Part shown: piece by piece, positions 391 to 50,617 of the stretch
How the letters are laid out: the number at the start of each line of letters is the position of its first letter
Position numbering within the stretch: position 1 is the first letter of the stretch
Assembly: GCA_046734335.1 (NCBI GenBank)
Contig: JBKPRA010000122.1
Coordinates: 3,901 to 67,900, forward strand
DNA from: Actinomycetota bacterium
GTDB lineage: Bacteria > Actinomycetota > Thermoleophilia > Gaiellales > Gaiellaceae
Reading direction: 5' to 3'
Length of the DNA stretch: 64,000 nt
Position numbers and translations under genes: made by a program
Notes under the pieces: model-generated
Database searches by the model: none
Seen by the model: the letters and a program-made list of their open reading frames with translations, nothing else
What the model was told of the DNA's origin: nothing

Positions 391-1172
391 GGCGTCACCA
401 GCGAGGCTCGTCTCTCCAGGCGCTCGATCTGCATCCGCCGCGAGTGCTCGAAGAGGCCGTTGTGGAGCGGAGGGATTGGTTCGGCGACTTCGAAGTAGAG
501 CAGCTTGATCCGCTCGAGCAGCTCCGGCCGGATCGCGCGCACGATCGCCTCTTCGACCCCCTCGGCGTCGACCTTCAGGATGTCGATGTCGGCTGTCTCG
601 GCGAGGACCTCTTCCAGGACGGCGTTCACGTCACGGCAGCGAACCTGGATGGTCTCGGCACCGATGCCGGTGCCGATGCCGCCGTAGCGTCCGGTCTCCT
701 CGATCCCGAAATCGACGATCCCGTCACGATCGGCGACCGCGCACTCCTGGAGTGAGTAGCGATCCTCGAAGCCGGCAAGGTTTCGCCTCAATCGTGCGAC
801 GTTGCGCGCATCGGGCTCGAACAGGTGCACCTGCACCTCGCGGTTCCGGGTCAGGAAGTACAGCGCGCTTACTCCGATGTTCGAGCCGATGTCGACGACG
901 GTGCCGACATCGGACGGCGCCGCGTAGTCTCCCCTGCAGAACACCTCCGTGACGGTCTGCAGATCGTCGGCATGGTCGAGGACGAGCTCCTGAATCCCGA
1001 GCGGCGTTCGCACCCGGCAGGTATACGGGTACGTGCCGGAGCCGAAGACGTACCGGGTCATGACCTTGGCCGGGCCTGGATAGACGTTCACCGAGTTCCA
1101 AAGCGCGACGTAGTGAGCTCCCGTGAGAGGCGCCATCGCAACCCGGCGCAGGCTGCGCTTCCTTTCGAGCAC
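360..1172 (-). CDS. FkbM-family SAM-dependent methyltransferase
   Basis: 270-aa ORF with VVDIGSNIGVSALYF (SAM-binding loop) and ILKVDAEGVEEAIV, both typical of FkbM-type methyltransferases. It is the last gene of the minus-strand sugar operon. Confidence 0.7.
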   Translation of the reverse strand: MLERKRSLRRVAMAPLTGAHYVALWNSVNVYPGPAKVMTRYVFGSGTYPYTCRVRTPLGIQELVLDHADDLQTVTEVFCRGDYAAPSDVGTVVDIGSNIGVSALYFLTRNREVQVHLFEPDARNVARLRRNLAGFEDRYSLQECAVADRDGIVDFGIEETGRYGGIGTGIGAETIQVRCRDVNAVLEEVLAETADIDILKVDAEGVEEAIVRAIRPELLERIKLLYFEVAEPIPPLHNGLFEHSRRMQIERLERRASLVTPQSRASSTSE

Positions 1173-1213
1173 ACGGCAACGATAGCGGCGCGTCGGAGGG
1201 TAGCCGGGCCGGC

Positions 1214-2134
1214 CTAGTCGAGCGAAAGGCGGGCGAGATTGTCGCGATACCAGCCGACGGTCCGCTCGAGCCCTTCGTCCAGGCTCACCCGTGGCTGCCA
1301 GCCGATGGCGGCCGCTGCCGCCTCCACGTCGGCCGTTCGCACCTGCTCGAGGGGCCTGTCCTCGACCGCTCCGAACACTGGCGCGATGGTCGGATCGACG
1401 AGCTCGACGAGACGCTCCACCAGCGAGCGGATCGAGCAGGACGTTCCCGACCCGACGTCGACCGACGCGCCCACAACGTCACTGCACGCTCCGGCGGCGA
1501 CGAAGGCGGCCGCGACGTCGTCGATGTACACCCAGTCGACCTCGCGTTGCCCGCTCGTCAGCTGCGGGGCTACGCCACGGAGCAGCGAGAGAGTCACGTA
1601 GGGGACGAGCTTCCGCAGATCCTTCTGTCCGGGGCCGAAGGTCATGAACAATCGCAGCACGATCACCGGAAGCTCGAGCATCGCCGCGAACAGCTCGCCG
1701 TACGACCGCGCCGCGAGCTTGGAGGCGGCGTACGGCGACGACGGAGGCTCGCCATGTTCCGGCTCCTCCATCGAGCCTGTGAGCACCACGCGCGCGCGAC
1801 CGTGCTCGGCGACGGCGGTCAGAAGATTCACGGTGCTCACGAGGTTCGCCTGGAAGGTGGAGCTCACCAGGTCGAGGTTGCGCGCTGCTCGGGTGTCGCC
1901 GGCAAGGTGGAACACGACGTCGGGCCTGGTGTTCTCGACGAGACGCCGGACTGCGTCCGGTTCGACCAGGTCGCTCTCGTGCCATCGGACCGGTCCGGCC
2001 CCACTCTGCGGGCGTCGAGACACCGCGTGGAGCTCGACTCTCTCGCCCTGCAGGCGCTCCAGTAGCCGTGCGCCGATGAAGCCGCTTGCCCCGGTCACCA
2101 GGACCCGGCTGTCTGCCAGGGTCGGAACGCTCAC
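1214..2134 (-). CDS. NAD-dependent epimerase/dehydratase (extended SDR)
   Basis: VLVTGASGFIGARLLERL Rossmann motif and YAASK catalytic Y-x3-K. The GTG start overlaps the upstream stop (GTGA). Confidence 0.8.
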   Translation of the reverse strand: MSVPTLADSRVLVTGASGFIGARLLERLQGERVELHAVSRRPQSGAGPVRWHESDLVEPDAVRRLVENTRPDVVFHLAGDTRAARNLDLVSSTFQANLVSTVNLLTAVAEHGRARVVLTGSMEEPEHGEPPSSPYAASKLAARSYGELFAAMLELPVIVLRLFMTFGPGQKDLRKLVPYVTLSLLRGVAPQLTSGQREVDWVYIDDVAAAFVAAGACSDVVGASVDVGSGTSCSIRSLVERLVELVDPTIAPVFGAVEDRPLEQVRTADVEAAAAAIGWQPRVSLDEGLERTVGWYRDNLARLSLD

Positions 2135-3426
2135 CGTTCTCCTGCTTCGGAGAACAGCTCGAGCTGCTCGTTCCAGAGTTCGTCCATCAACCGGCCCGAC
2201 GGACGCTCGACGTCGTCGAACGCGATCGGCTCGTCGATCTCCACCTCACGCGCCAGCCGGCAGCCCTCGGCGAGGCCCATCGGTAGCAGCTTCGCCGACC
2301 TGGCCACGTCCGCGTTCTCGATCGTTCCGTAGGAGTCGAAGCCGCCGATACCGTCGAGGAACGTGCCCTCCGGCAGCTTGCGTTTGGCAATCGTCACGAC
2401 CTCGCAGCGGGGCCGGCCGAGCGGAGTCACGGCGGCATCGTGGAAGAGGACGGCACGGGCGACGGTCAACGGGACGTCGAAGTTGGGGAGATGCCAGGGC
2501 TGATAAAAGGTGTAGAGCGGTCCGTCTCCGAGCTTGAAGTAGCTCAAGTAGCCCTGCCGGCCGGGGTCGTCGCCGTAGGCGACCACGAACGCTCCGGAGC
2601 CGGGCTGGGCGCCGAGGAGGAAGTCGACGATCCCGCCGCGAAGGAGCTCTTCCGCGTCGAAGAGGCCGGCTGCCTCGTTGACGTGCTCGCAATGGTGCCC
2701 GGTCATGCCGCGGCGGGCGACTCCGAAGCCGAGTGCGTTGGCGGTGATCGTCGCCTCGAGTGACAGCTTCGTCCCGTCCGCGAACGATGTGACCATCCGC
2801 TCCTTCTGACCGACCGAGGCTGCGAACGCGCGTTGGGTCTCGGGCGTCCGATAGGGATCGAGGAGGCCCTTGAGGTTGCCGACGAGCACGGGCTCGAGCC
2901 CGATCGCGCGTGTGTACCGGCTGAGGTTCACGATCAGGCCCGGCTCGTCGCCGTCGGTGTAAGAGACGACGACGCCGGCGCGGTCGGCCCGCGCCTTGAG
3001 CAGGGGACCGAGCGTACCGTCGAGCTCCGCGTTCACGAGGACGACGTGTTTCCCGGACTCGATCGAGGCGAGTGCGAACCGGGCGCCGGCCTCGACGTCG
3101 CCTGTCGCCTCGATCACGGCCTCGACGCCCGCGGCACGGGCGAGCAGGCCGGCGTCGGACGTGACCGCCGGGCGGCCGGCGGCCGTTGCGTCCGCCAGCT
3201 CGCCGTCGGTCGAGACGAGCCGTGCGTCGGGCCTGCCGGCGGCGGCGAACGCCGCGTCCGCCTGCCCCGGGTCCCGAGACGCGATCGCGACGAGCTCCAC
3301 CCCGGGCACGGCCCGCACGATCTGCAACGCGATACCCCGGCCCATGTAGCCGGCCCCCGACAGTGCGACTCTGATCGGGTTGCCTTCGCGCGCTCGGCGC
3401 TCGAGCGCCGTGTCGACCAGGATCAC
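2131..3426 (-). CDS. NAD(P)-binding oxidoreductase with C-terminal SAF-like domain (homoserine-dehydrogenase-like, COG4091 type)
   Basis: N-terminus NPIRVALSGAGYMGRG and a long conserved body. I moved the start to GTG 3426, which forms a GTGA overlap with the stop of the upstream gene. The extra 53 aa in the table ORF are Arg-rich and overlap the neighbour. Confidence 0.65.
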   Translation of the reverse strand: MILVDTALERRAREGNPIRVALSGAGYMGRGIALQIVRAVPGVELVAIASRDPGQADAAFAAAGRPDARLVSTDGELADATAAGRPAVTSDAGLLARAAGVEAVIEATGDVEAGARFALASIESGKHVVLVNAELDGTLGPLLKARADRAGVVVSYTDGDEPGLIVNLSRYTRAIGLEPVLVGNLKGLLDPYRTPETQRAFAASVGQKERMVTSFADGTKLSLEATITANALGFGVARRGMTGHHCEHVNEAAGLFDAEELLRGGIVDFLLGAQPGSGAFVVAYGDDPGRQGYLSYFKLGDGPLYTFYQPWHLPNFDVPLTVARAVLFHDAAVTPLGRPRCEVVTIAKRKLPEGTFLDGIGGFDSYGTIENADVARSAKLLPMGLAEGCRLAREVEIDEPIAFDDVERPSGRLMDELWNEQLELFSEAGER

Positions 3427-9779: not shown

Positions 9780-9878
9780 CGCGTCACGGCATAAACCGCA
9801 GCTGCGTGGGGAAGACATCCGACTTGCAATGCGTCCGGTAATGGGATACATGATTGGGGACAGGGGAGGAGTTTCCAG

Positions 9879-12800
9879 TTGATGAAGGGCCTCGCGCGGG
9901 CGGGCGCAGCGCTCATCGCGCTCGTTCTCGTTCTGGGCGTCCATACAGCCGGCGCGCTCGCGGGACTTCCGTCCGGCTTCTCGGACACGGTGGTCGGCTT
10001 CACCGGCCTCACGAACCCGACCGCGCTGCGCTTCTCGCCCGACGGGCGGATCTTCATCGGCCAGAAGAACGGCGTCGTCAAGGAGTTCGACAGCCTCTCC
10101 GATCCGACCCCGACGACCGTCGTCGATCTCTCCAGTGAGGTCTATAACGCCTGGGATCGCGGACTGCTGGGGCTTGCGCTCGATCCGAGCTTCCCCTCGA
10201 ACCCGTACATGTACGTGCTCGAGTCGTACGACGCGCTCCCCGGCGGCACCGCTCCGCGCTGGAACGACGCCTGCCCCGATCCGCCGGGTGCGAACACCGA
10301 CGGCTGCACCGTCAGCGCGCGCCTGCTCAGGCTTACGCTGCTGGGCAACACAGTCACCCAGACCAAGGTCCTGATCAAGGACGAGTGGTGCCAGCAGTAC
10401 TCGAGCCATTCGATCGGTGATCTCCGCTTCGGCTCTGACGGATCGCTCTACGTCTCCGGCGGGGACGGCGCGAGCTACACCTTCGCCGACTACGGCCAGG
10501 GGGGCGGCGGCGCCGGGAGCCCGACCCCGAAGAACGTCTGCGGCGACCCCCCGGGCGGCGTCGGCGGCAGCATGACGCCGCCCACGGCCGAGGGCGGAGC
10601 GCTGCGGTCGCAGAGCCTGCGCCGGCCCGCCGGACAGCCGGCCTCGCTCGACGGCACCGTCATCCGTGTCGACCCCGCGACCGGTGACGCCATGCCCAAC
10701 AACCCAAACGCAGGAAGCAGCGATCCCGATGCGCGCCGCATCGTCGCGTACGGGCTGCGCAATCCGTTCCGCTTCACGATTCGGCCGGGCACCAACGAGC
10801 TCTGGATCACCGAGGTCGGCTGGAACGACTGGGAAGAGATCAACCGCTCACCGTCCCCGACGAGCTCCATCTTGAATTTCGGCTGGCCATGCTACGAGGG
10901 GAACTCTCCGCAGCCCGGATACCAGAGCGCGGGCCTCAGCCTCTGCACATCGCTGTACAGCGCGGGGACCGCGACTCCGCCCTATTTCACGTACAACCAC
11001 GGAGCCCATATCGCCTCGGGTGACAGCTGTCCCACCGGGAGCTCCTCCGCCACCGGTCTTGCCTTCTACACCGGTGGGAGCAACTATCCGGCCTCCTACA
11101 ACAACGGCCTCTTCTTCGCCGACTACGCGCGGAACTGCATCTCCTTCATGCCGGTCGGAAGCAATGGGCTCCCCGACCCGACGAAGGCCCAGCCGTTCGA
11201 GTCCGCCGCATCGACGCCGGTCGACCTCGAGATCGGTCCCAACGGCGACCTGTTCTACGTCGACATCGTCGGCAGCACGATCAGGGAGATCAAGTACGCC
11301 GGGTCCAACAACCATCCTCCTGTCGCGGTGGCAACGGCGACACCGACGAGCGGCGCTGCTCCGCTGACGGTGAACTTCGACGGCTCGGGATCGTCGGATC
11401 CGGATGCCGGGGACACGATCTCGTACTCGTGGGACCTGAACGGGGACGGCACGTTCGGGGACTCGACGGTGGCGAAGCCGTCGTTCACGTACTCGACGCC
11501 CGGGACCTACAACGCAGTGCTGAAGGTGACCGACAACCATTCGGCGTCGACCCTCAGCTCGCCCGTGTCGATCACCGTGACGGGGTCGGGCGGGACGTCG
11601 ACGTTCGGGGTGACGACGCCCGGCACGCTGATCGACACGGCAGGGGCAAACAACAAGGCGGTCTCGCGGTTCACGGCCCCGGAAGCCGGAGCCGTCGTGA
11701 AGCTGACGAGCTACCTCTCCGGGCTCGGTGCGGCCGCGGGGACCCAGTCGATTCGAGGAGTGCTGTACGCGGACGCCGGCGGGGAGCCGGGTGCTCTGCT
11801 CGGGGTCTCGAACGAGGTGATCGTGACGGCCGGGAGACCCTGGGGCTGGGTCGACTTCACCTTCCCCACGCCGGTGACCATCCAGGCGGGCACGATCTGG
11901 ATGGGCTTCCTGGCGGGCGACAGCAGCGACCTGATTCAGCGCCGCCACTCCTCGGTCGCGAACGACGTGAGGTACAACGCGAACCCCGGCGGCTACGCGG
12001 CCGGGCCGTCGAATCCCTTCGGCAGCGCTATCTCGGGGCTCGACTTCCACTTCTCGATCAACGCTACGTACATACCGGCGGGCGGAGGCTCGAACCGTTC
12101 GCCCGTCGCGGTCGCGACGGCGACGCCGACGAGCGGCGCTGCCCCGCTGACGGTGAACTTCGACGGCTCGGGATCGTCGGATCCGGATGCAGGGGACACG
12201 ATCTCGTACTCGTGGGACCTGAACGGGGACGGCACGTTCGGGGACTCGACAGTGGCGAAGCCGTCGTTCACGTACACGGCGGTCGGGACGTACAACGCGG
12301 TGCTGCGGGTGACCGACAACCATGGAGCGTCGACGCTGAGCGCGCCGATCACGATCACGGTGTCCAGTTCGGGCACGACGGCGACGTTCGGGGTGACGAC
12401 GCCGGGGGCGCTGGTCGACACGGCTGGCGCGAACAACAAGGCGGTCTCGAAGTTCAGCGCCCCCGAGGCGGGGACCGTGACCAAGGTCAGCGGGTACCTC
12501 TCGGGGCTGGGAGCCGCGACCGGATCTCAGGTGGTCCGAGCAGTTCTGTATGCGGACTCGGGTGGAGAGCCGGGTGCCCTGCTCGGGGTGTCCAACGAGG
12601 TGACGGTCAACGCGGGCCAGGCCTGGGGCTGGGTCGACTTCCCGTTCGCGTCGGCGGTGCCGATCCAGGCAGGCACGATCTGGATGGGCTACCTCGGCGG
12701 CGACACCAGTGACGTCATCCAGCGGCGTCATTCGTCCGTGACGAACGACCTGCGGTACAACGCCAACGCCGGCGGATACGCGGCCGGGCCGTCGAATCCG

Positions 12801-33945: not shown

Positions 33946-34749
33946 GTGGCCGTGCTCCGTCCGTCGACCGAGCTTTCCCACGGCGAGCTGGCAGAGCTGT
34001 TCACCGCGGCGTACGAGGGCTATTTCGTCCCGTTCAGGGTCGACGAAGCGACGCTCGGATTCATGGTCGACGTCTTCGATCTCGATCTTGAGCTGTCGCT
34101 CGTCGCGGTGGAGGACGGCACGCCGGTCGGTCTCGCCAACCTGGGCCGGCGAGGCGCGTGCACCTGGCTCGGTGGCGTCGGCGTCGTCCCGAGCCGTCGA
34201 GGCGAGGGAATCGGCGAGCTGCTCACGCGTAACGTGCTCGAGCAAGCCGGAACGGTGGGGGCGACCGAGATGAGGCTCGAGGTGATCGTCGAGAACGGCC
34301 CGGCGATCTCGCTCTACGAGAAGCTCGGATTCGTCCGGATCCGTGAGCTCGAGGTCCTGTCCCTCGCCGCCGCGGAGCGGGACGGCGAAGACGCCGAGGC
34401 GGCGACTCTCGACGCTGCCCGGGCCCTCATCCGGGCAGGCCGGGACGGGGAAGAGCCGTGGCAACGCGCCGACGCCACGACCGACCGGCTCCTCCAGCGG
34501 CGCCCGGCACCCGAGGCGATGGTCGCCGGCGAGGCCGCGGCCGTCTATCGCGTCATCGGCGACAACGTCGGCCTCGTCCAGGCGGCGGGCGACGAGCGCG
34601 GGCTCGCTGCGATCCTTGCGTCGCTGCGCGCGAAGGGAAAGGTGACCGCTGTGAACTATCCCGCCGGAGGCGCAGTCGCAGAGGCGCTCCGGGCGGTCGG
34701 AGCGGAGGTGTCGCTGCGCCAGTACGAGATGGTCAGGAGCCTGGACTAA
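33946..34749 (+). CDS. GNAT-family N-acetyltransferase
   Basis: VGVVPSRRGEGIGELLTRNVLEQA (acetyl-CoA binding R-x-x-G-x-G/A motif) within a 267-aa ORF. Confidence 0.7.
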   Translation: MAVLRPSTELSHGELAELFTAAYEGYFVPFRVDEATLGFMVDVFDLDLELSLVAVEDGTPVGLANLGRRGACTWLGGVGVVPSRRGEGIGELLTRNVLEQAGTVGATEMRLEVIVENGPAISLYEKLGFVRIRELEVLSLAAAERDGEDAEAATLDAARALIRAGRDGEEPWQRADATTDRLLQRRPAPEAMVAGEAAAVYRVIGDNVGLVQAAGDERGLAAILASLRAKGKVTAVNYPAGGAVAEALRAVGAEVSLRQYEMVRSLD

Positions 34750-35342
34750 TCCGACTCGAGCGCGTACCCGCGCGAGAGCATCGCCTCGCCGCGATCCAGG
34801 CAGGATTCCCAGGTGGGGACGTCCCAGCCGAGCGAGTCGGCCAGGCGGACGATCATGTTGAACAGCGCGGCCACGTGGATCGCGTCGGCCATCGCCTCGT
34901 CGGAGATGCCCGCTGCGCGCACGCGGTCAGCATCATCTGGAGTGACCTCCTCCGGGCGGAGCGTCAGCTTCTCCAGAAAGCCGAGCATCGCGCGGAGCCC
35001 CTCTTCGATCGGCGCAGTCCGCCAATCCGTCTCGACCGCTTTCCAGACCTCGTCACCGAGAGCGTACGACGCGACCGCGCCGTGCGAGCGCGTTCAGAAC
35101 GGGCACTGGTTGAGCGACGAGACGAACCCCGCGAACAGCTCGCGCTCGCCGGGCGACCACTCCGACGGTCCGCGCATCGCCGCATCCAGCGCCGTCGAAA
35201 ACGGACGGCCGAACAGCTCCGGCCTGTAGTAGAGCGTCTTCAGAACGCCGGAGGCCGTGGGTAGGCCGCGGGCCTGCGCGATCTCCGCGAGGATCGCAGC
35301 CTCAGCCGGTGCGTGCCCCGAATCGACGACCTCGAGTCTCAG
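34746..35342 (-). CDS. AhpD-like / carboxymuconolactone decarboxylase (CMD) family protein with in-frame TGA (35094-35096) at the second Cys of the CxxC motif: candidate selenoprotein (alternatively a pseudogene)
   Basis: Table ORFs 35094..35897(-) and 34746..34988(-) share one frame. Read-through gives ..FVSSLNQCPF[TGA]TRSHGAVASYALGDEVW..., a CPxC-xxx-H pattern. The start is tentatively CTG 35342 (GGAGAGG 2 nt upstream, CTGA overlap with the upstream stop). Read-through length is 198 aa. Confidence 0.55.
35063..35086 (-). promoter_or_regulatory. candidate bacterial SECIS hairpin (GGUC tetraloop 21-24 nt from the U of UGA)
   Basis: mRNA 5'-CGCACGGCGC[GGUC]GCGUCGUACG-3'. The upper stem has 7 consecutive pairs (one G-U), then a C/A mismatch, then 2 more pairs. 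This was hand-folded only. Confidence 0.4.
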
Positions 35343-35596
35343 CGCCTCTCCAAACCCAACGACATCAGGCCTGCCTCCAGTCGGTCGAGGCCGGCAGCTA
35401 CCGCCGTCGACACCGTCTGCTCGAAGATCTCGTCCTCCGAGTGGCCCGCCTCCTTCAGCGCTTCGACGTCGCGGTCGGTGACCGCGTAGGCGCGCGTGCG
35501 CACCTTGGCGAGATACGCCTCGAAGTCGGGCGGTGCGGCGCGGTCGGGGTGCGCCGCGTCGCTCAGCGCCGCTATCAGATCGTCGTAGCGGGTCAC
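35339..35596 (-). CDS. small CMD-domain-like protein (85 aa)
   Basis: VTRYDDLIAALSD...AVTDRDVEALKEAGHSEDEIFEQTVSTAVAAGLDRL resembles the C-terminal helices of CMD/AhpD-like proteins. GTG 35596 overlaps the mutY-like stop (GTGA). Confidence 0.45.
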   Translation of the reverse strand: MTRYDDLIAALSDAAHPDRAAPPDFEAYLAKVRTRAYAVTDRDVEALKEAGHSEDEIFEQTVSTAVAAGLDRLEAGLMSLGLERR

Positions 35597-36306
35597 GAGG
35601 GAAGCGTAGCCTGGCCGTGATCGACGACGACCAGGCCGTCCGCGACGAGGGACTCGAGCGCCTCGGGGTCGAGCTCGACCGCCCGCGGCTCGGCGGCGAC
35701 GAGGCGGAGCACCTGCGCGCGTCGCTGGCGGAACGAGCCTTCGAAGGGGCCCTGCTTCCGCTCCGGCTCGTATCGGCGGCCGACAGACGGACAGGCGTCG
35801 GCGAGGGGGCAGCCGCCGCACCGTGGAACGCGAGCCAGACAGACCGTCGCGCCGAGGTCGAAGAGCGCCTGCGCCGCCCCGGGGCCGAACTGACCACCCG
35901 TCCGGGAGAGCACCCGGGCGACGTTGACGTCGACCGGCAGGAGCGGCCTGCCGAAGGCGAAGTTCCCGATCGCCGCGGCCGTGTACGGTCCGACGCCGGG
36001 AAGCTCGGTCAGGTCGTCGGGCCACCCGTGCTCGGCAACCAGCCGCGCGGCGCGGTGAAGCGCTACTGCCCGACGGTTGTAGCCGAGCCCCTGCCAGGCG
36101 CGGATCGCGTCCGCCGGCGAAGCGACGGCCAGCGACTCGACCGTGGGCCAGCGCTCCAGCCAATCGAGAAAGCGAGGCACGACCCGCGCGACCTGGGTCT
36201 GCTGGAGCATGATCTCGGAGACCAGGATCGCGTACGGATCACGGGTCCCGCGCCACGGCAGCTTTCGGCCGTGCTCGGCGAACCAGGCGAGCAGGAGCTC
36301 CTCCAT
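35593..36306 (-). CDS. mutY: A/G-specific adenine DNA glycosylase (MutY-like, short form without NUDIX-like C-domain)
   Basis: LPWRGTRDPYAILVSEIMLQQTQV, HhH-GPD LPGVGPYTAAAI, and the Fe-S cluster loop CLARVPRCGGCPLADAC. The start is ATG 36306. Confidence 0.8.
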   Translation of the reverse strand: MEELLLAWFAEHGRKLPWRGTRDPYAILVSEIMLQQTQVARVVPRFLDWLERWPTVESLAVASPADAIRAWQGLGYNRRAVALHRAARLVAEHGWPDDLTELPGVGPYTAAAIGNFAFGRPLLPVDVNVARVLSRTGGQFGPGAAQALFDLGATVCLARVPRCGGCPLADACPSVGRRYEPERKQGPFEGSFRQRRAQVLRLVAAEPRAVELDPEALESLVADGLVVVDHGQATLPS

Positions 36307-36316
36307 GGCGCTGAAG

Positions 36317-37066
36317 CTAGGCGTGGCGCTCGATGAAGTCGAGCGTCCGCTTCCAGGCGTCGTCCGACGCTGCCTGGTACTGGTCCTGTTTGCGGTCGAA
36401 GAAGGAGTGGGGCGCACCTTCGTAGGTGACAATCTCGTGCTCGATCCCGGCAGCGGTCAGCGCGTCGTCGAAGGCGGCGTTCTGCTCGGCTGTGATGTTC
36501 TCGTCGGCACCCGCCTGGAGCGCGAGGATCGGCCCCTTCAGCTCCGTGGCTCGATCGAGCGGGCCCAGCCAGTCGCCTCGGGCGGTCAGACTGCCGTAGA
36601 ACCCGACGGCACCCGCGAGGTCATGGTCGCCGGCGGTGGACAGCCACGAGTTACGACCGCCGAAGCAGAAGCCGACCGTGCAGACGGAGCGGGCGCCGTG
36701 GTCGCGGAGCCAGACGACGGCGACGGCGAGGTCGAGCTGGATCGTTTCGGGATCGGTGAGGCTGACGTGATCCGCGTACTGAAAGTCGTCATCGCGTTTC
36801 GCGACGCCGGCAGTGCGGCCGAAGTAGTCGAACGCGATCGCGACCATGCCGCGCTCGGCGAAGCGGAGCGCGAGCTCCTCGTAGAAGCGGTACAGGCCGC
36901 GCACGTCGGGCAGGATGACGACGCCGTTGTTCGAGGGCGTATCGGGCGTTGCCGCGAATGCCGCGAAGCGATTCCCGTCGGCCGCCTCCAGGACGAGATT
37001 CTCGTAGGAGACCGCCGCGCCGGAGATCGCGACCACCGGCGGCGAGGAGTCGAGGTCGAAGCACAC
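36317..37066 (-). CDS. dienelactone hydrolase family protein
   Basis: VVILPDVRGLYRFYEELALRFAERG and GFCFGG (nucleophile elbow) motifs; 249 aa. A TAGGCT box lies 10 nt upstream of the GTG start. Confidence 0.8.
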   Translation of the reverse strand: MCFDLDSSPPVVAISGAAVSYENLVLEAADGNRFAAFAATPDTPSNNGVVILPDVRGLYRFYEELALRFAERGMVAIAFDYFGRTAGVAKRDDDFQYADHVSLTDPETIQLDLAVAVVWLRDHGARSVCTVGFCFGGRNSWLSTAGDHDLAGAVGFYGSLTARGDWLGPLDRATELKGPILALQAGADENITAEQNAAFDDALTAAGIEHEIVTYEGAPHSFFDRKQDQYQAASDDAWKRTLDFIERHA

Positions 37067-48411: not shown

Positions 48412-49376
48412 TAGGCTGAAGCGAGCGCCTGCTCGAGGTCGGCCCAGAGCTCGTCGGCGTCTTCGAGGCCGACCGACAGGCGCAGGAGCCCGACGGGCAC
48501 ACGGTCCCCTTCCCAGCGGTGCCGTGACTCCATCGTCGACTCGACGCCGCCGAGCGAGGTCGCGTTCTTGATCGAGTGCAGCGCGCGTTCGACCGGCAGC
48601 GGGTCGCCGGGAACGTCGAACGAGAGGAGTCCGCCGAAGCCGGGGTAGCGGACGTTCTCGACCGCAGAATGACCACGCAGGCGCTCGGCGAGCACGGTTG
48701 CGGTACCGGTTTGTCGTTCGACCCTCACACGCAGGGTCTTGAGCCCGCGCGTGACCAGCGCCGCGACGTCCGCGGCGCAGGCGGGGCCGGTGCGTTGTCG
48801 GAATTGCCAGAGCCGCCGGTGGTCGGCGGCGTCGCGCGAGATGATCGCGCCTGCGAGCGCGTCCGAGTGGCCGGCGAGGTACTTCGTAGCCGAGTGAAGG
48901 ACGAAGTCGGCACCGTGGTCGAGCGGGCGCAGAAAGACGGGCGTCGCGGCGGTCGAGTCGACGACGACCCGCGCCGGATGCGCTGTGGCGGCCTCGAGGT
49001 CGGGCATCGTCAGGAATGGGTTCGACGGCGCCTCCAGCCAGATCAGGTCGATCCCGTCGGGCGGCGGCCGGGTCTGATCGAACTCGATCGTGTTCAGGCC
49101 CCACCGGCCGAGCTCCTCTCGCATCATCACCCCGGTGCCGAAGTAACAGCCCTCCGCGAGCGCGACGGTCCTTCCGGGCTCGAGCAGGGCCAGTAGCAGA
49201 GCCAAGGTCGCCGCGGAGCCGGAGGAGAACAGCAGCGCCTGACCGTCCGGCGCACCTTCGAGCGCGGCCAGCGTCCGCTCGGTCTCGGCCCCGGTCGGGT
49301 GCGCATAGCGTGAGTAGAGGAACTCGCCGGGCTCGCCGTCCGCGTAGGGCCAGATAGTGGAGCGGTCGACGCTCAT
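48411..49376 (-). CDS. Cys/Met-metabolism PLP-dependent enzyme (cystathionine gamma-synthase/beta-lyase family, short)
   Basis: The SATKYLAGHSD PLP-lysine motif and family-like sequence throughout; 321 aa. ATGA overlap with the upstream MFS gene. Confidence 0.75.
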   Translation of the reverse strand: MSVDRSTIWPYADGEPGEFLYSRYAHPTGAETERTLAALEGAPDGQALLFSSGSAATLALLLALLEPGRTVALAEGCYFGTGVMMREELGRWGLNTIEFDQTRPPPDGIDLIWLEAPSNPFLTMPDLEAATAHPARVVVDSTAATPVFLRPLDHGADFVLHSATKYLAGHSDALAGAIISRDAADHRRLWQFRQRTGPACAADVAALVTRGLKTLRVRVERQTGTATVLAERLRGHSAVENVRYPGFGGLLSFDVPGDPLPVERALHSIKNATSLGGVESTMESRHRWEGDRVPVGLLRLSVGLEDADELWADLEQALASA

Positions 49377-50617
49377 CCGGCGAGACTACCGGCGGGCTCC
49401 GGCCGCAGGTCCTCCAGTTTCCCCATCCGCGCCAATTCGGGGAAGACCCTGATCGACGCCAATGCGATCCCGATCGTGGCGACGCCGCCGGCGACGACCG
49501 TCGCCACCGTGCCGATCAGCGCGGCGACCGCTCCCGACTCGAACGCGCCGAGCTCATTGGAGGCGGAGATGAACACCATCTCGACTGCGCCAACTCGCCC
49601 CCGCAGTTCATTCGGCGTGACGAGTGCGACCGTCGTCGAGCGGATGTTGACGCTGATCATGTCGACGAAGCCGGCGACCGCCAGCGCGACGAGTGTGATC
49701 GGCAGCAGCTTCGAAAGGCCCCAGACGATGTTGGCAGCGCCGAAGAGCACTACCACTGCGATCAGGGTCGGGCCGGCGGCGCGGCGGAGGGGGCGCCGCG
49801 CGAGGATGAGCGCTGCGCCGAGTGCGCCGATTGCGGGCGCGGCCCGGAGCACACCGAGGCCAACCGGTCCGACATGAAGAATCTCCTGCGCGTAGATCGG
49901 CAACAGCGCCACCCCGCCGCCGACCAGCACCGCGAACAGGTCGAGGGTGATCGCCCCGAGTAGCATCCTCGTTCGCCAGACGAAGCGGATCCCGCCGACC
50001 AGGCCGGCGAGCCCGACCGAAGCGTCGCTTCGGTGGGTCTGCACGTGGAGCCCCGCCATCGAGATTCCGGCGATCGCGAAGAGCAGTGCGGCCGCCGCGT
50101 AGACCGCCTCGGGCTGCCAGGCGAAGAGGAGCCCGCCGACCGCAGGCCCCGCGATCACGGCGATCTGCCCGGCGATGGAGCGGAGCGCGACCGCTCCGGG
50201 CACCAGGTCGGGTGGAACCACCTCGGGCGTGAGCGCCTGGTACGCGGGCCAGCCGAGCGCGCTCGCAGCGCCGGTCAGCGCCGCCAGCACGAAGTACGGC
50301 CAGACCACCTGCGCGTCCGCGATGGTGACCGCCAGCAGTGCGCCGGCCACGGCGACCATGACTGCCAGGGCCAGGGCGGCGACGAGCCGGCGCGGCAGCC
50401 GGTCGGCCAGATGGCCCGCCGGCAGAGCGAGGACCAGCAACGGCACGAACTCGGCGAGGCCGATCAGGCCGAGGTCGAGTGGATTCTTGCGGATCGAGAA
50501 GACCTGCCAGCCGACCGCGACCGCGACCATGTTCTCGGCGAAGCGCATGGAGAAGATCGCCGACCAGAGGAACCGGAAGTCGCGCTCCTGGAGCGCCGGT
50601 GGCAGTCGCTGCCGCAT
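49373..50617 (-). CDS. MFS transporter
   Basis: 414 aa with about 12 hydrophobic segments. The N-terminus [21 protein letters not shown] is typical of enterobactin-exporter-like MFS proteins. A TAGGTT box lies 6 nt upstream of the ATG. Confidence 0.8.

Follow-up and report, generated by a model that had tools for sequence, protein, structure and literature searches.

A stretch of 64,000 nucleotides (nt) from the Gaiellaceae assembly GCA_046734335.1 (contig JBKPRA010000122.1, positions 3,901 to 67,900; hereafter the window) carries an AhpD-like gene with an in-frame TGA at its active site. We conclude with high confidence that 35342..34746 on the minus strand is one intact gene for an AhpD-like selenoprotein, in which the UGA would be decoded as selenocysteine (Sec) with a downstream hairpin acting as the selenocysteine insertion sequence (SECIS). 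The initial annotation of this DNA had proposed a Sec-containing, AhpD-like peroxidase-related enzyme, and that proposal is upheld by a match to the family TIGR01926, a TGA in 77/77 distinct orthologues, cysteine (Cys) in homologues, a conserved hairpin and Sec genes in the lineage.

An in-frame TGA shared by all close orthologues

The TGA (35096..35094, minus strand) lies in frame between stretches of 82 and 115 codons, in the context AAC CAG TGC CCG TTC TGA ACG CGC TCG CAC GGC. Upstream, the frame is open to the stop of the preceding gene; downstream, it is open to a TAG at 34748..34746. Read through, the coding sequence (34746..35342, minus strand) comprises 198 codons plus the TAG, with the UGA as its single in-frame one, and the 198-residue product contains SSLNQCPF[TGA]TRSHGAVASYALGDEVWKAV. 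The UGA (35094..35096, minus strand) would thereby encode Sec as residue 83, the second redox position of C80-P-F-U83-T-R-S-H87. The coordinates, the common frame of the open reading frames (ORFs) 34746..34988 and 35094..35897, and the motif C-P-F-[TGA]-T-R-S-H are all as first annotated. Of the longer ORF, only the last 82 codons belong to this gene, and the remainder is open frame overlapping the upstream genes.

We scanned GTDB with one genome per species and examined 80 loci among ~585 GTDB relatives; pooled with five metagenome loci, 81 carried the motif, corresponding to 77 distinct coding sequences. The codon is TGA in 81/81 loci (77/77 distinct), with zero TGC or TGT. Proteins from the GTDB-scan loci are 64–86% identical to that of the window. 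Every locus with a rank named below phylum belongs to Gaiellales, Gaiellaceae or Thermoleophilia, and the remaining GTDB loci are labelled merely Actinomycetes, Actinomycetota or Actinobacteria.

More distant full-length homologues have Cys at this column, in CPFC, CSFC and CRFC forms and as CQFCATTHE in Mycobacterium, as do AhpD-type structures; the check for Cys-bearing homologues proposed with the first annotation thus came out in its favour. The companion check, for homologues that end at the TGA by design, found none: all 77 distinct Gaiellales orthologues combine the TGA with a conserved continuation. Reassignment of TGA in the lineage was considered and rejected, as TGA terminates neighbouring genes; it serves as a normal stop for the small upstream ORF of both the window and relatives, as well as for the orthologue in the relative L001.

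Family assignment and active site

The 198-residue read-through product matches the NCBIfam model TIGR01926 (peroxidase-related enzyme) at 98.2 bits (cut-off 81.8), over positions 3–172 of the 178 in the model and therefore across the TGA. Pfam CMD is also matched above its cut-off (24.2 bits, cut-off 23), and ahpD_dom falls just under its own (26.3 bits, cut-off 27.8). A family profile searched against the PDB retrieved AhpD-type structures, namely 6k40 (the best, E = 3e-31), 2oyo, 3c1l, 2pfx and 2prr, in which the motif N-x-C-x-x-C-x-x-S-H-G-A aligns to C80, U83 and H87. The alignments to Cys homologues and to these PDB chains agree with the earlier placement of the TGA at the second Cys of an AhpD-type CxxCxxxH motif.

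In the family alignment, E66, R67, E68, C80, U83 and H87 are invariant columns. The codon of Cys80 (35103..35105, minus strand), the first residue of the CxxU redox motif, is invariant in both the family alignment and the 77 orthologues, and His87 of CxxUxxxH is encoded by CAC (35082..35084, minus strand) in 77/77, a codon that also lies within the candidate SECIS stem. Glu68 (35139..35141, minus strand) belongs to an invariant G-E-R-E-L, 12 residues before Cys80. The catalytic residues of Mycobacterium tuberculosis AhpD are Glu118-Cys130-x-x-Cys133-x-x-x-His137. The Glu68–Cys80 spacing equals that of Glu118 and Cys130, and we take Glu68 to be the counterpart of Glu118. The classical arrangement Glu...Cys-x-x-Cys-x-x-x-His on a CMD fold is thus present, with Sec predicted in place of the second Cys. 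Three features characterize AhpD-like selenoproteins, namely a full-length TIGR01926 match, a UGA in a CxxU aligned with Cys, and a SECIS hairpin, and the gene displays each of them.

Two other family assignments were tried. The selenoprotein model NF041238 (AhpD_rel_CFYUT) was matched with 49.4 bits against a cut-off of 175, over positions 223–335 of 357. A PcaC-type carboxymuconolactone decarboxylase was rejected, as TIGR01926 is the best curated family and the neighbours are not pca genes. Classical AhpD acts together with a neighbouring AhpC peroxiredoxin and is reduced by the lipoamide system. We did not notice ahpC among the immediate neighbours (hydrolase, glycosylase, small ORF and GNAT genes), although the window was not searched systematically for it.

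A conserved hairpin directly downstream of the TGA

With the U of UGA numbered +1, an upper SECIS-like stem-loop spans +14 to +31 (35066..35083, minus strand). Its 7-bp stem, ACGGCGC paired with GCGUCGU, is continuous and includes one wobble (G17-U28). It exposes a GGUC loop at 35076..35073 with G at +22 and U at +23, a loop sequence shared by the SECIS of Escherichia coli fdhF. Across 74 distinct 60-nt stretches, positions +13 to +31 are nearly invariant and the loop G +22 and U +23 never vary.

This conservation extends to sites that the protein leaves free. The synonymous stem positions +15, +18, +27 and +30 are fixed, and the codons for His (CAC), Gly (GGC), Ala (GCG) and Ser (TCG) show an entropy of 0 bits (77/77), compared with mostly ~1.0–1.7 bits at the other conserved four- or sixfold degenerate columns of the gene, where the lowest value is 0.11 and none is zero. 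Positions +21 and +24, the third positions of Ala and Val codons that face each other across the loop, are G..C in 48 sequences, A..U in 26 and mixed in 0. This coupled switch requires ~8 changes on a neighbour-joining tree built without the hairpin, a rough figure given the short gene. For the 21-nt core, the folding energy is −10.6 kcal/mol, lower than that of shuffles (z = −2.9). The hairpin is conserved at the RNA level.

A possible lower stem (+5 to +9 with +36 to +40, plus C11-G34; 35057..35092, minus strand) is weak in the window; depending on the pair, ~50–100% of alignment cells are paired, and there are no double changes. RNAalifold recovers the upper stem only, which is invariant.

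As a control, we collected the DNA of five Cys forms. Hairpin codons are altered in three of them (L088, at all four synonymous sites, L210 and L211). The other two, L086 (3001..3591) and L087 (1029..1619), both of the CRFC...HGAVAS type, keep the identical 18-nt hairpin CACGGCGCGGTCGCGTCG after TGC or TGT. Hairpin retention is therefore 77/77 in Sec forms vs 2/5 in Cys forms (hypergeometric ~1e-4, indicative only, as the sequences are related). One further locus, L209 (~1156..1752, encoding protein P0003), has AGA (Arg) at the Sec column, one base from TGA, and an intact hairpin; protein P0012 likewise has R there. The AGA of L209 may reflect a sequencing error or a genuine inactivating change.

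The window was also scanned for other combinations of a UGA, a hairpin and an NGUN loop. The one other GGUC match, at 49518 on the minus strand, has a TGA, with a 7-bp stem and its loop following at +20, and open frames on both sides. It lies inside an MFS transporter gene (49373..50617), and we rejected it as a second selenoprotein and regard it as a chance look-alike, because its TGA falls outside the reading frame of that gene (GCA CTG ATC GGC).

Selenocysteine machinery in Gaiellaceae

Genes for Sec incorporation were found in relatives of the window. In L055 (Gaiellaceae metagenome-assembled genome (MAG) SMAG_U4883, contig DASYAO010000151.1), a tRNA-Sec lies at 2056..2146 on the plus strand, with an ARAGORN anticodon of TCA and a match to Rfam RF01852 at 61.4 bits (cut-off 47). 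On that strand, the small ORF and the orthologous UGA gene follow immediately after its end. L064 is the nearest relative for which long flanks are available; it has no tRNA-Sec within 10 kb, and the location of selC is therefore variable.

When the anticodon arm of the L055 tRNA-Sec was used as a pattern on metagenome contigs, it returned 120 loci, mostly on high-GC soil contigs that share the acceptor stem of the L055 tRNA, and in many of these loci selA and selB adjoin selC. The SelA encoded at one of them, L092, matches TIGR00474 at 529 bits and its SelB matches TIGR00475 at 369 bits, both above cut-off, and SelB proteins of the soil contigs score 364–369 bits. L092 SelB is 78–81% identical to NCBI proteins labelled 'selenocysteine-specific translation elongation factor [Gaiellaceae bacterium]', and for one such protein (P0224) the MAG contig also holds a tRNA-Sec. 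With a tRNA-Sec next to the UGA gene in L055 and selA, selB and selC on Gaiellaceae-type contigs, the gene content indicates that the Gaiellaceae lineage decodes Sec.

One of the selB-bearing loci, L108 (contig Ga0307278_10000057, 2180..2458, minus strand), has two anticodon-arm matches 224 nt apart. The second copy, diverged at its 3' end, may be a partial selC duplicate.

Alternative explanations of the TGA

Several observations weigh against decoding as Sec. Neither selA, selB, selC nor selD is present in the 64-kb window, where a tRNA-Thr is the sole tRNA or Rfam match. No selA, selB or selD was found in the 20-kb flanks of 80 relatives (1.4 Mb, searched with regular expressions and phmmer); phmmer was run with SelA and SelD of E. 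coli, both of which found homologues in the tRNA-Sec loci. In addition, selD was not found in any Gaiellales-type contig, and the link within a single genome is limited to the tRNA-Sec of L055. As for the RNA, the window sequence is rich in GC and the energy of its 41-nt fold does not stand out from shuffles (z = +0.49), which is why conservation was used as the evidence for a SECIS; the L055 variant prefers an alternative fold, and the stem never varies and has no compensatory changes, the loop-closing pair being its sole covariation. The intact hairpins of L086 and L087 (Cys) and L209 (Arg) indicate that the sequence is not strictly tied to UGA. The start of the window gene also has no ATG, GTG or TTG.

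Some of these points would fit a UGA that is read through or recoded without Sec, by a near-cognate tRNA (tRNA-Trp, -Cys or -Arg) at a leaky UGA-A, with the hairpin serving as a pausing or read-through stimulator. Such a mechanism could do without sel genes in the window and in the flanks searched, would be compatible with a hairpin that persists beside TGC, TGT and AGA in some relatives, and is favoured by the Arg codon of L209 and the Arg residues of P0003 and P0012. We nevertheless consider it very unlikely. The column is that of the catalytic Cys of CxxC, where Sec alone among the residues encoded by UGA keeps the chemistry, and the loop retains the G-U recognised by E. coli SelB at the same distance from the UGA, to within one nucleotide. 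A tRNA-Sec stands beside the L055 orthologue, SelA and SelB occur in Gaiellaceae, and the AhpD-like CxxU proteins (TIGR01926) have been accepted as a family of selenoproteins. Under decoding as Sec, the hairpins of L086, L087 and L209 would be explained if these three are recent replacements of Sec, as they appear to be; in L086 and L087 the hairpin may be a 'fossil' SECIS.

A second alternative takes the TGA as a genuine stop in a split gene, with an N-terminal protein of ~82 residues and a separately initiated C-terminal protein that assemble non-covalently. Gene callers do annotate the locus in this way in relatives (81 aa and 118 aa in L001), and in a few of them an ATG directly follows the TGA (e.g. 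L001, L036, L039, L055, L064 and L080). In most relatives, however, the TGA is followed by a codon that is no start, such as ACG or GCG, and a real stop is very unlikely because most species thus have no start codon after it. In the window, 36 codons separate the TGA from the next ATG, and these codons, described as protein-like in the initial annotation, are indeed conserved as protein. A split would also leave a lone Cys80 at the very end of one chain with His87 on the other, gives no reason for synonymous sites frozen into a hairpin with a G-U loop, and contrasts with Cys homologues that are single chains. We therefore give a split gene almost no weight.

Codon changes were counted against the closest relative (L006). 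Before the TGA, 16 are synonymous and 5 non-synonymous, and after it 23 are synonymous and 20 non-synonymous; the 55 codons preceding the first in-frame ATG are likewise under purifying selection (16 synonymous vs 5 non-synonymous). Because synonymous changes exceed non-synonymous ones on either side, both halves are translated and under selection. The check for decay suggested earlier was negative, as changes on both sides of the TGA are mostly synonymous and the window copy has no frameshifts and no additional stops. Together with the TGA shared by the orthologues, selection on both halves rules out damage confined to this copy. A pseudogene whose active-site Cys codon had mutated to a stop and whose start codon had been lost would account for the in-frame stop, for a CTG where relatives have ATG or GTG, and for the 350 nt left unannotated on identical contigs, but it has next to no likelihood given that the 'nonsense' codon is common to 77/77 distinct orthologues, that the CTG recurs in a second lineage (L007) and here follows a strong Shine-Dalgarno-like GGAGAGG, and that the identical sequence, present in 45 blocks of the metagenome contig index (23 contigs read), is stably carried.

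Truncated and chimeric database entries

The initial annotation had remarked that gene callers truncate AhpD-like selenoproteins, and this is what databases contain for the family. Pipelines applied to contigs identical to the window call the last 80 residues only and leave the first 350 nt unannotated. In the protein search, matches were of three kinds: full-length Cys forms, full-length forms with W at the Sec column from short metagenome contigs, and dozens of entries of ~118 residues that start immediately after the Sec column. For one 'W' entry (P0001), the underlying DNA was retrieved, and the codon is TGA; such entries probably stem from a gene caller picking a code with TGA as a sense codon on short contigs.

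Apparent 'fusions' of the small ORF with the AhpD-like protein (P0007 and P0018) were rejected as artefacts, because the W at their junction is the TGA stop of the small ORF read with another genetic code; W also stands at the Sec column. Two further entries look like assembly chimeras, on contigs of about 1.2–1.4 kb: P0016, with 123 residues, seems circularly permuted, with the C-terminal part followed by an N-terminal part ending in ...CPF, and in P0022 an acyltransferase N-terminus is followed by the ~95 C-terminal residues of a protein with 87% identity to that of the window. In L001, ARAGORN reports a 90-nt 'tRNA-Arg (ccg)' (9819..9908, minus strand) that runs antisense within the N-terminal half of the orthologue; in coding sequence this rich in GC, the call is almost certainly spurious.

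Start codon, partner ORF and gene neighbourhood

An ATG or GTG start had been expected for the gene and was not borne out: the codon at the aligned position is CTG (35340..35342, minus strand), which overlaps the stop of the small ORF in a CTGA and lies just downstream of GGAGAGG. In relatives, the aligned start is ATG in 39 loci, GTG in 25 and TTG in 1. CTG is also found in the identical metagenome contigs and in L007 (10001..10003), on two separate branches of the gene tree. CTG is probably the codon actually used, and its occurrence on both branches suggests that a near-cognate start is tolerated when translation resumes after the small ORF.

The small partner ORF (35339..35596, minus strand) encodes 85 residues from a GTG start, and its stop overlaps the selenoprotein start. 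A homologous ORF is found in nearly all of 76 relatives, where its stop overlaps or abuts the selenoprotein start, with an ATGA-type offset in 63/76, and we predict that the two genes are translationally coupled. The small ORF is homologous to a 154–164-residue ORF preceding Cys forms (41% identical to the 154-residue partner ORF of Cys-form operons) and has weak similarity to the C-terminal helices of TIGR01926.

Further upstream lie a gene for an HhH-GPD base-excision glycosylase (35593..36306, minus strand; Pfam HhH-GPD, 1e-14), whose stop shares 4 nt (GTGA) with the small ORF start, and a dienelactone-hydrolase-family gene (36317..37066, minus strand; PF01738 DLH on identical metagenome contigs). 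The initial annotation had described a redox/damage-themed operon chained by 4-nt overlaps. The overlaps hold between the HhH-GPD gene and the small ORF and between the small ORF and the AhpD-like gene, but 10 nt lie between the stop of the hydrolase gene (36317..36319) and the HhH-GPD start (36306). Similarly, the genes are present in the window, but their association is conserved in the nearest sub-clade only: the HhH-GPD gene is adjacent in 13/76 relatives, all of the sub-clade of the window, and the hydrolase gene in 4/76. What is conserved is the pair of small ORF and selenoprotein gene.

On the other side, a GNAT acetyltransferase gene (33946..34749, plus strand) is convergent with the selenoprotein gene. 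Their stop codons overlap by 4 nt, so that the pair has no intergenic space for a terminator.

Proposed mechanism and significance

We propose that the product is a 198-residue thiol/selenol oxidoreductase of the CMD fold with the active site Glu68...Cys80-Pro-Phe-Sec83-Thr-Arg-Ser-His87. Translation would begin at the CUG by termination-reinitiation after the small ORF, helped by the upstream GGAGAGG. The hairpin at +14 to +31, exposing G22 and U23, would bind SelB with GTP and Sec-tRNA(Sec), and this complex would be delivered to the ribosome paused at the UGA. In the enzyme, Sec83 would take the place of the nucleophilic second Cys of AhpD, with Cys80 resolving it, and the protein would cycle between a selenol/thiol and a Cys80–Sec83 selenenyl-sulfide while reducing its substrate, either a peroxidatic protein or a small molecule (a disulfide or hydroperoxide).

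A broader proposal joins several of these points, and we put it forward only tentatively, as its parts are rather unlikely to hold all together: a two-subunit selenoenzyme, made up of the selenoprotein and the small ORF product, would be vertically inherited as a core trait of the Gaiellales, which are abundant and largely aerobic in soils, and be translated by non-AUG (CUG) reinitiation, with Sec ancestral and repeatedly replaced. The Cys forms that retain the SECIS hairpin would show this ancestry of Sec, and its repeated replacement, in this branch. The Gaiellales would then be a major user of selenium in soils that had so far gone unrecognised.

If the assignment is right, recognition of this gene shows that the Gaiellales use Sec. 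Databases would accordingly hold the active-site half of a conserved redox enzyme in missing or wrong form for a whole order of soil bacteria. The locus would also provide a deeply sampled natural alignment of a SECIS within coding sequence, with frozen synonymous sites, a covarying loop-closing pair and an invariant G-U.

Relation to described selenoproteins and SECIS elements

An AhpD-like protein of COG2128 was listed as a CXXU selenoprotein in the Sargasso Sea metagenome in 2005 (PMC1088965), AhpD-like selenoproteins were counted in bacterial genomes in 2006 (PMC1794560), and a 2026 review defines the AhpD-like protein as TIGR01926 with a CxxU motif and one Sec (PMC13188914). The window protein agrees with this family in scoring above the TIGR01926 cut-off, in its CxxU with one Sec and in having widespread Cys homologues. 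AhpD-like selenoproteins have so far been described from marine metagenomes, Firmicutes and other lineages, whereas here the gene is near-universal and vertically conserved in soil Gaiellales, is paired with a small coupled ORF and, in the window, has a CTG start. The literature searched contained no mention of selenoproteins of Gaiella or Thermoleophilia.

Like the 'hypothetical protein 1' of the Sargasso Sea (NF041238), the protein has a CMD-type domain with a C-x-x-U-T motif (C-P-F-U-T in the window, C-F-Y-U-T in NF041238), but the match is limited to the C-terminal 110 residues of the 357-position model, and the window protein is not a member. With M. tuberculosis AhpD it shares the CMD fold and the E...CxxCxxxH pattern, Sec83 aligning with the second Cys, which is the nucleophile; it differs in belonging to the 'peroxidase-related' branch of TIGR01926, where 6k40, 2oyo, 3c1l, 2pfx and 2prr are nearer to it than classical AhpD is, and in having Sec for Cys.

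The E. coli SECIS comprises an upper stem-loop at nt 15–31 with essential loop nucleotides G23 and U24 and a bulged U17 (PMC8659212). The candidate SECIS of the window resembles that of fdhF in forming a hairpin directly 3' of the UGA within the coding sequence, in its span (~14/15–31) and in its loop G-U, and differs from it in having no bulged U17, in a G-U that lies at +22/+23, 1 nt closer to the UGA, and in a weak lower stem. The gene is therefore a new member at the level of the lineage, in an AhpD-like selenoprotein family that has itself been recognised since 2005 and the knowledge of which is unchanged.

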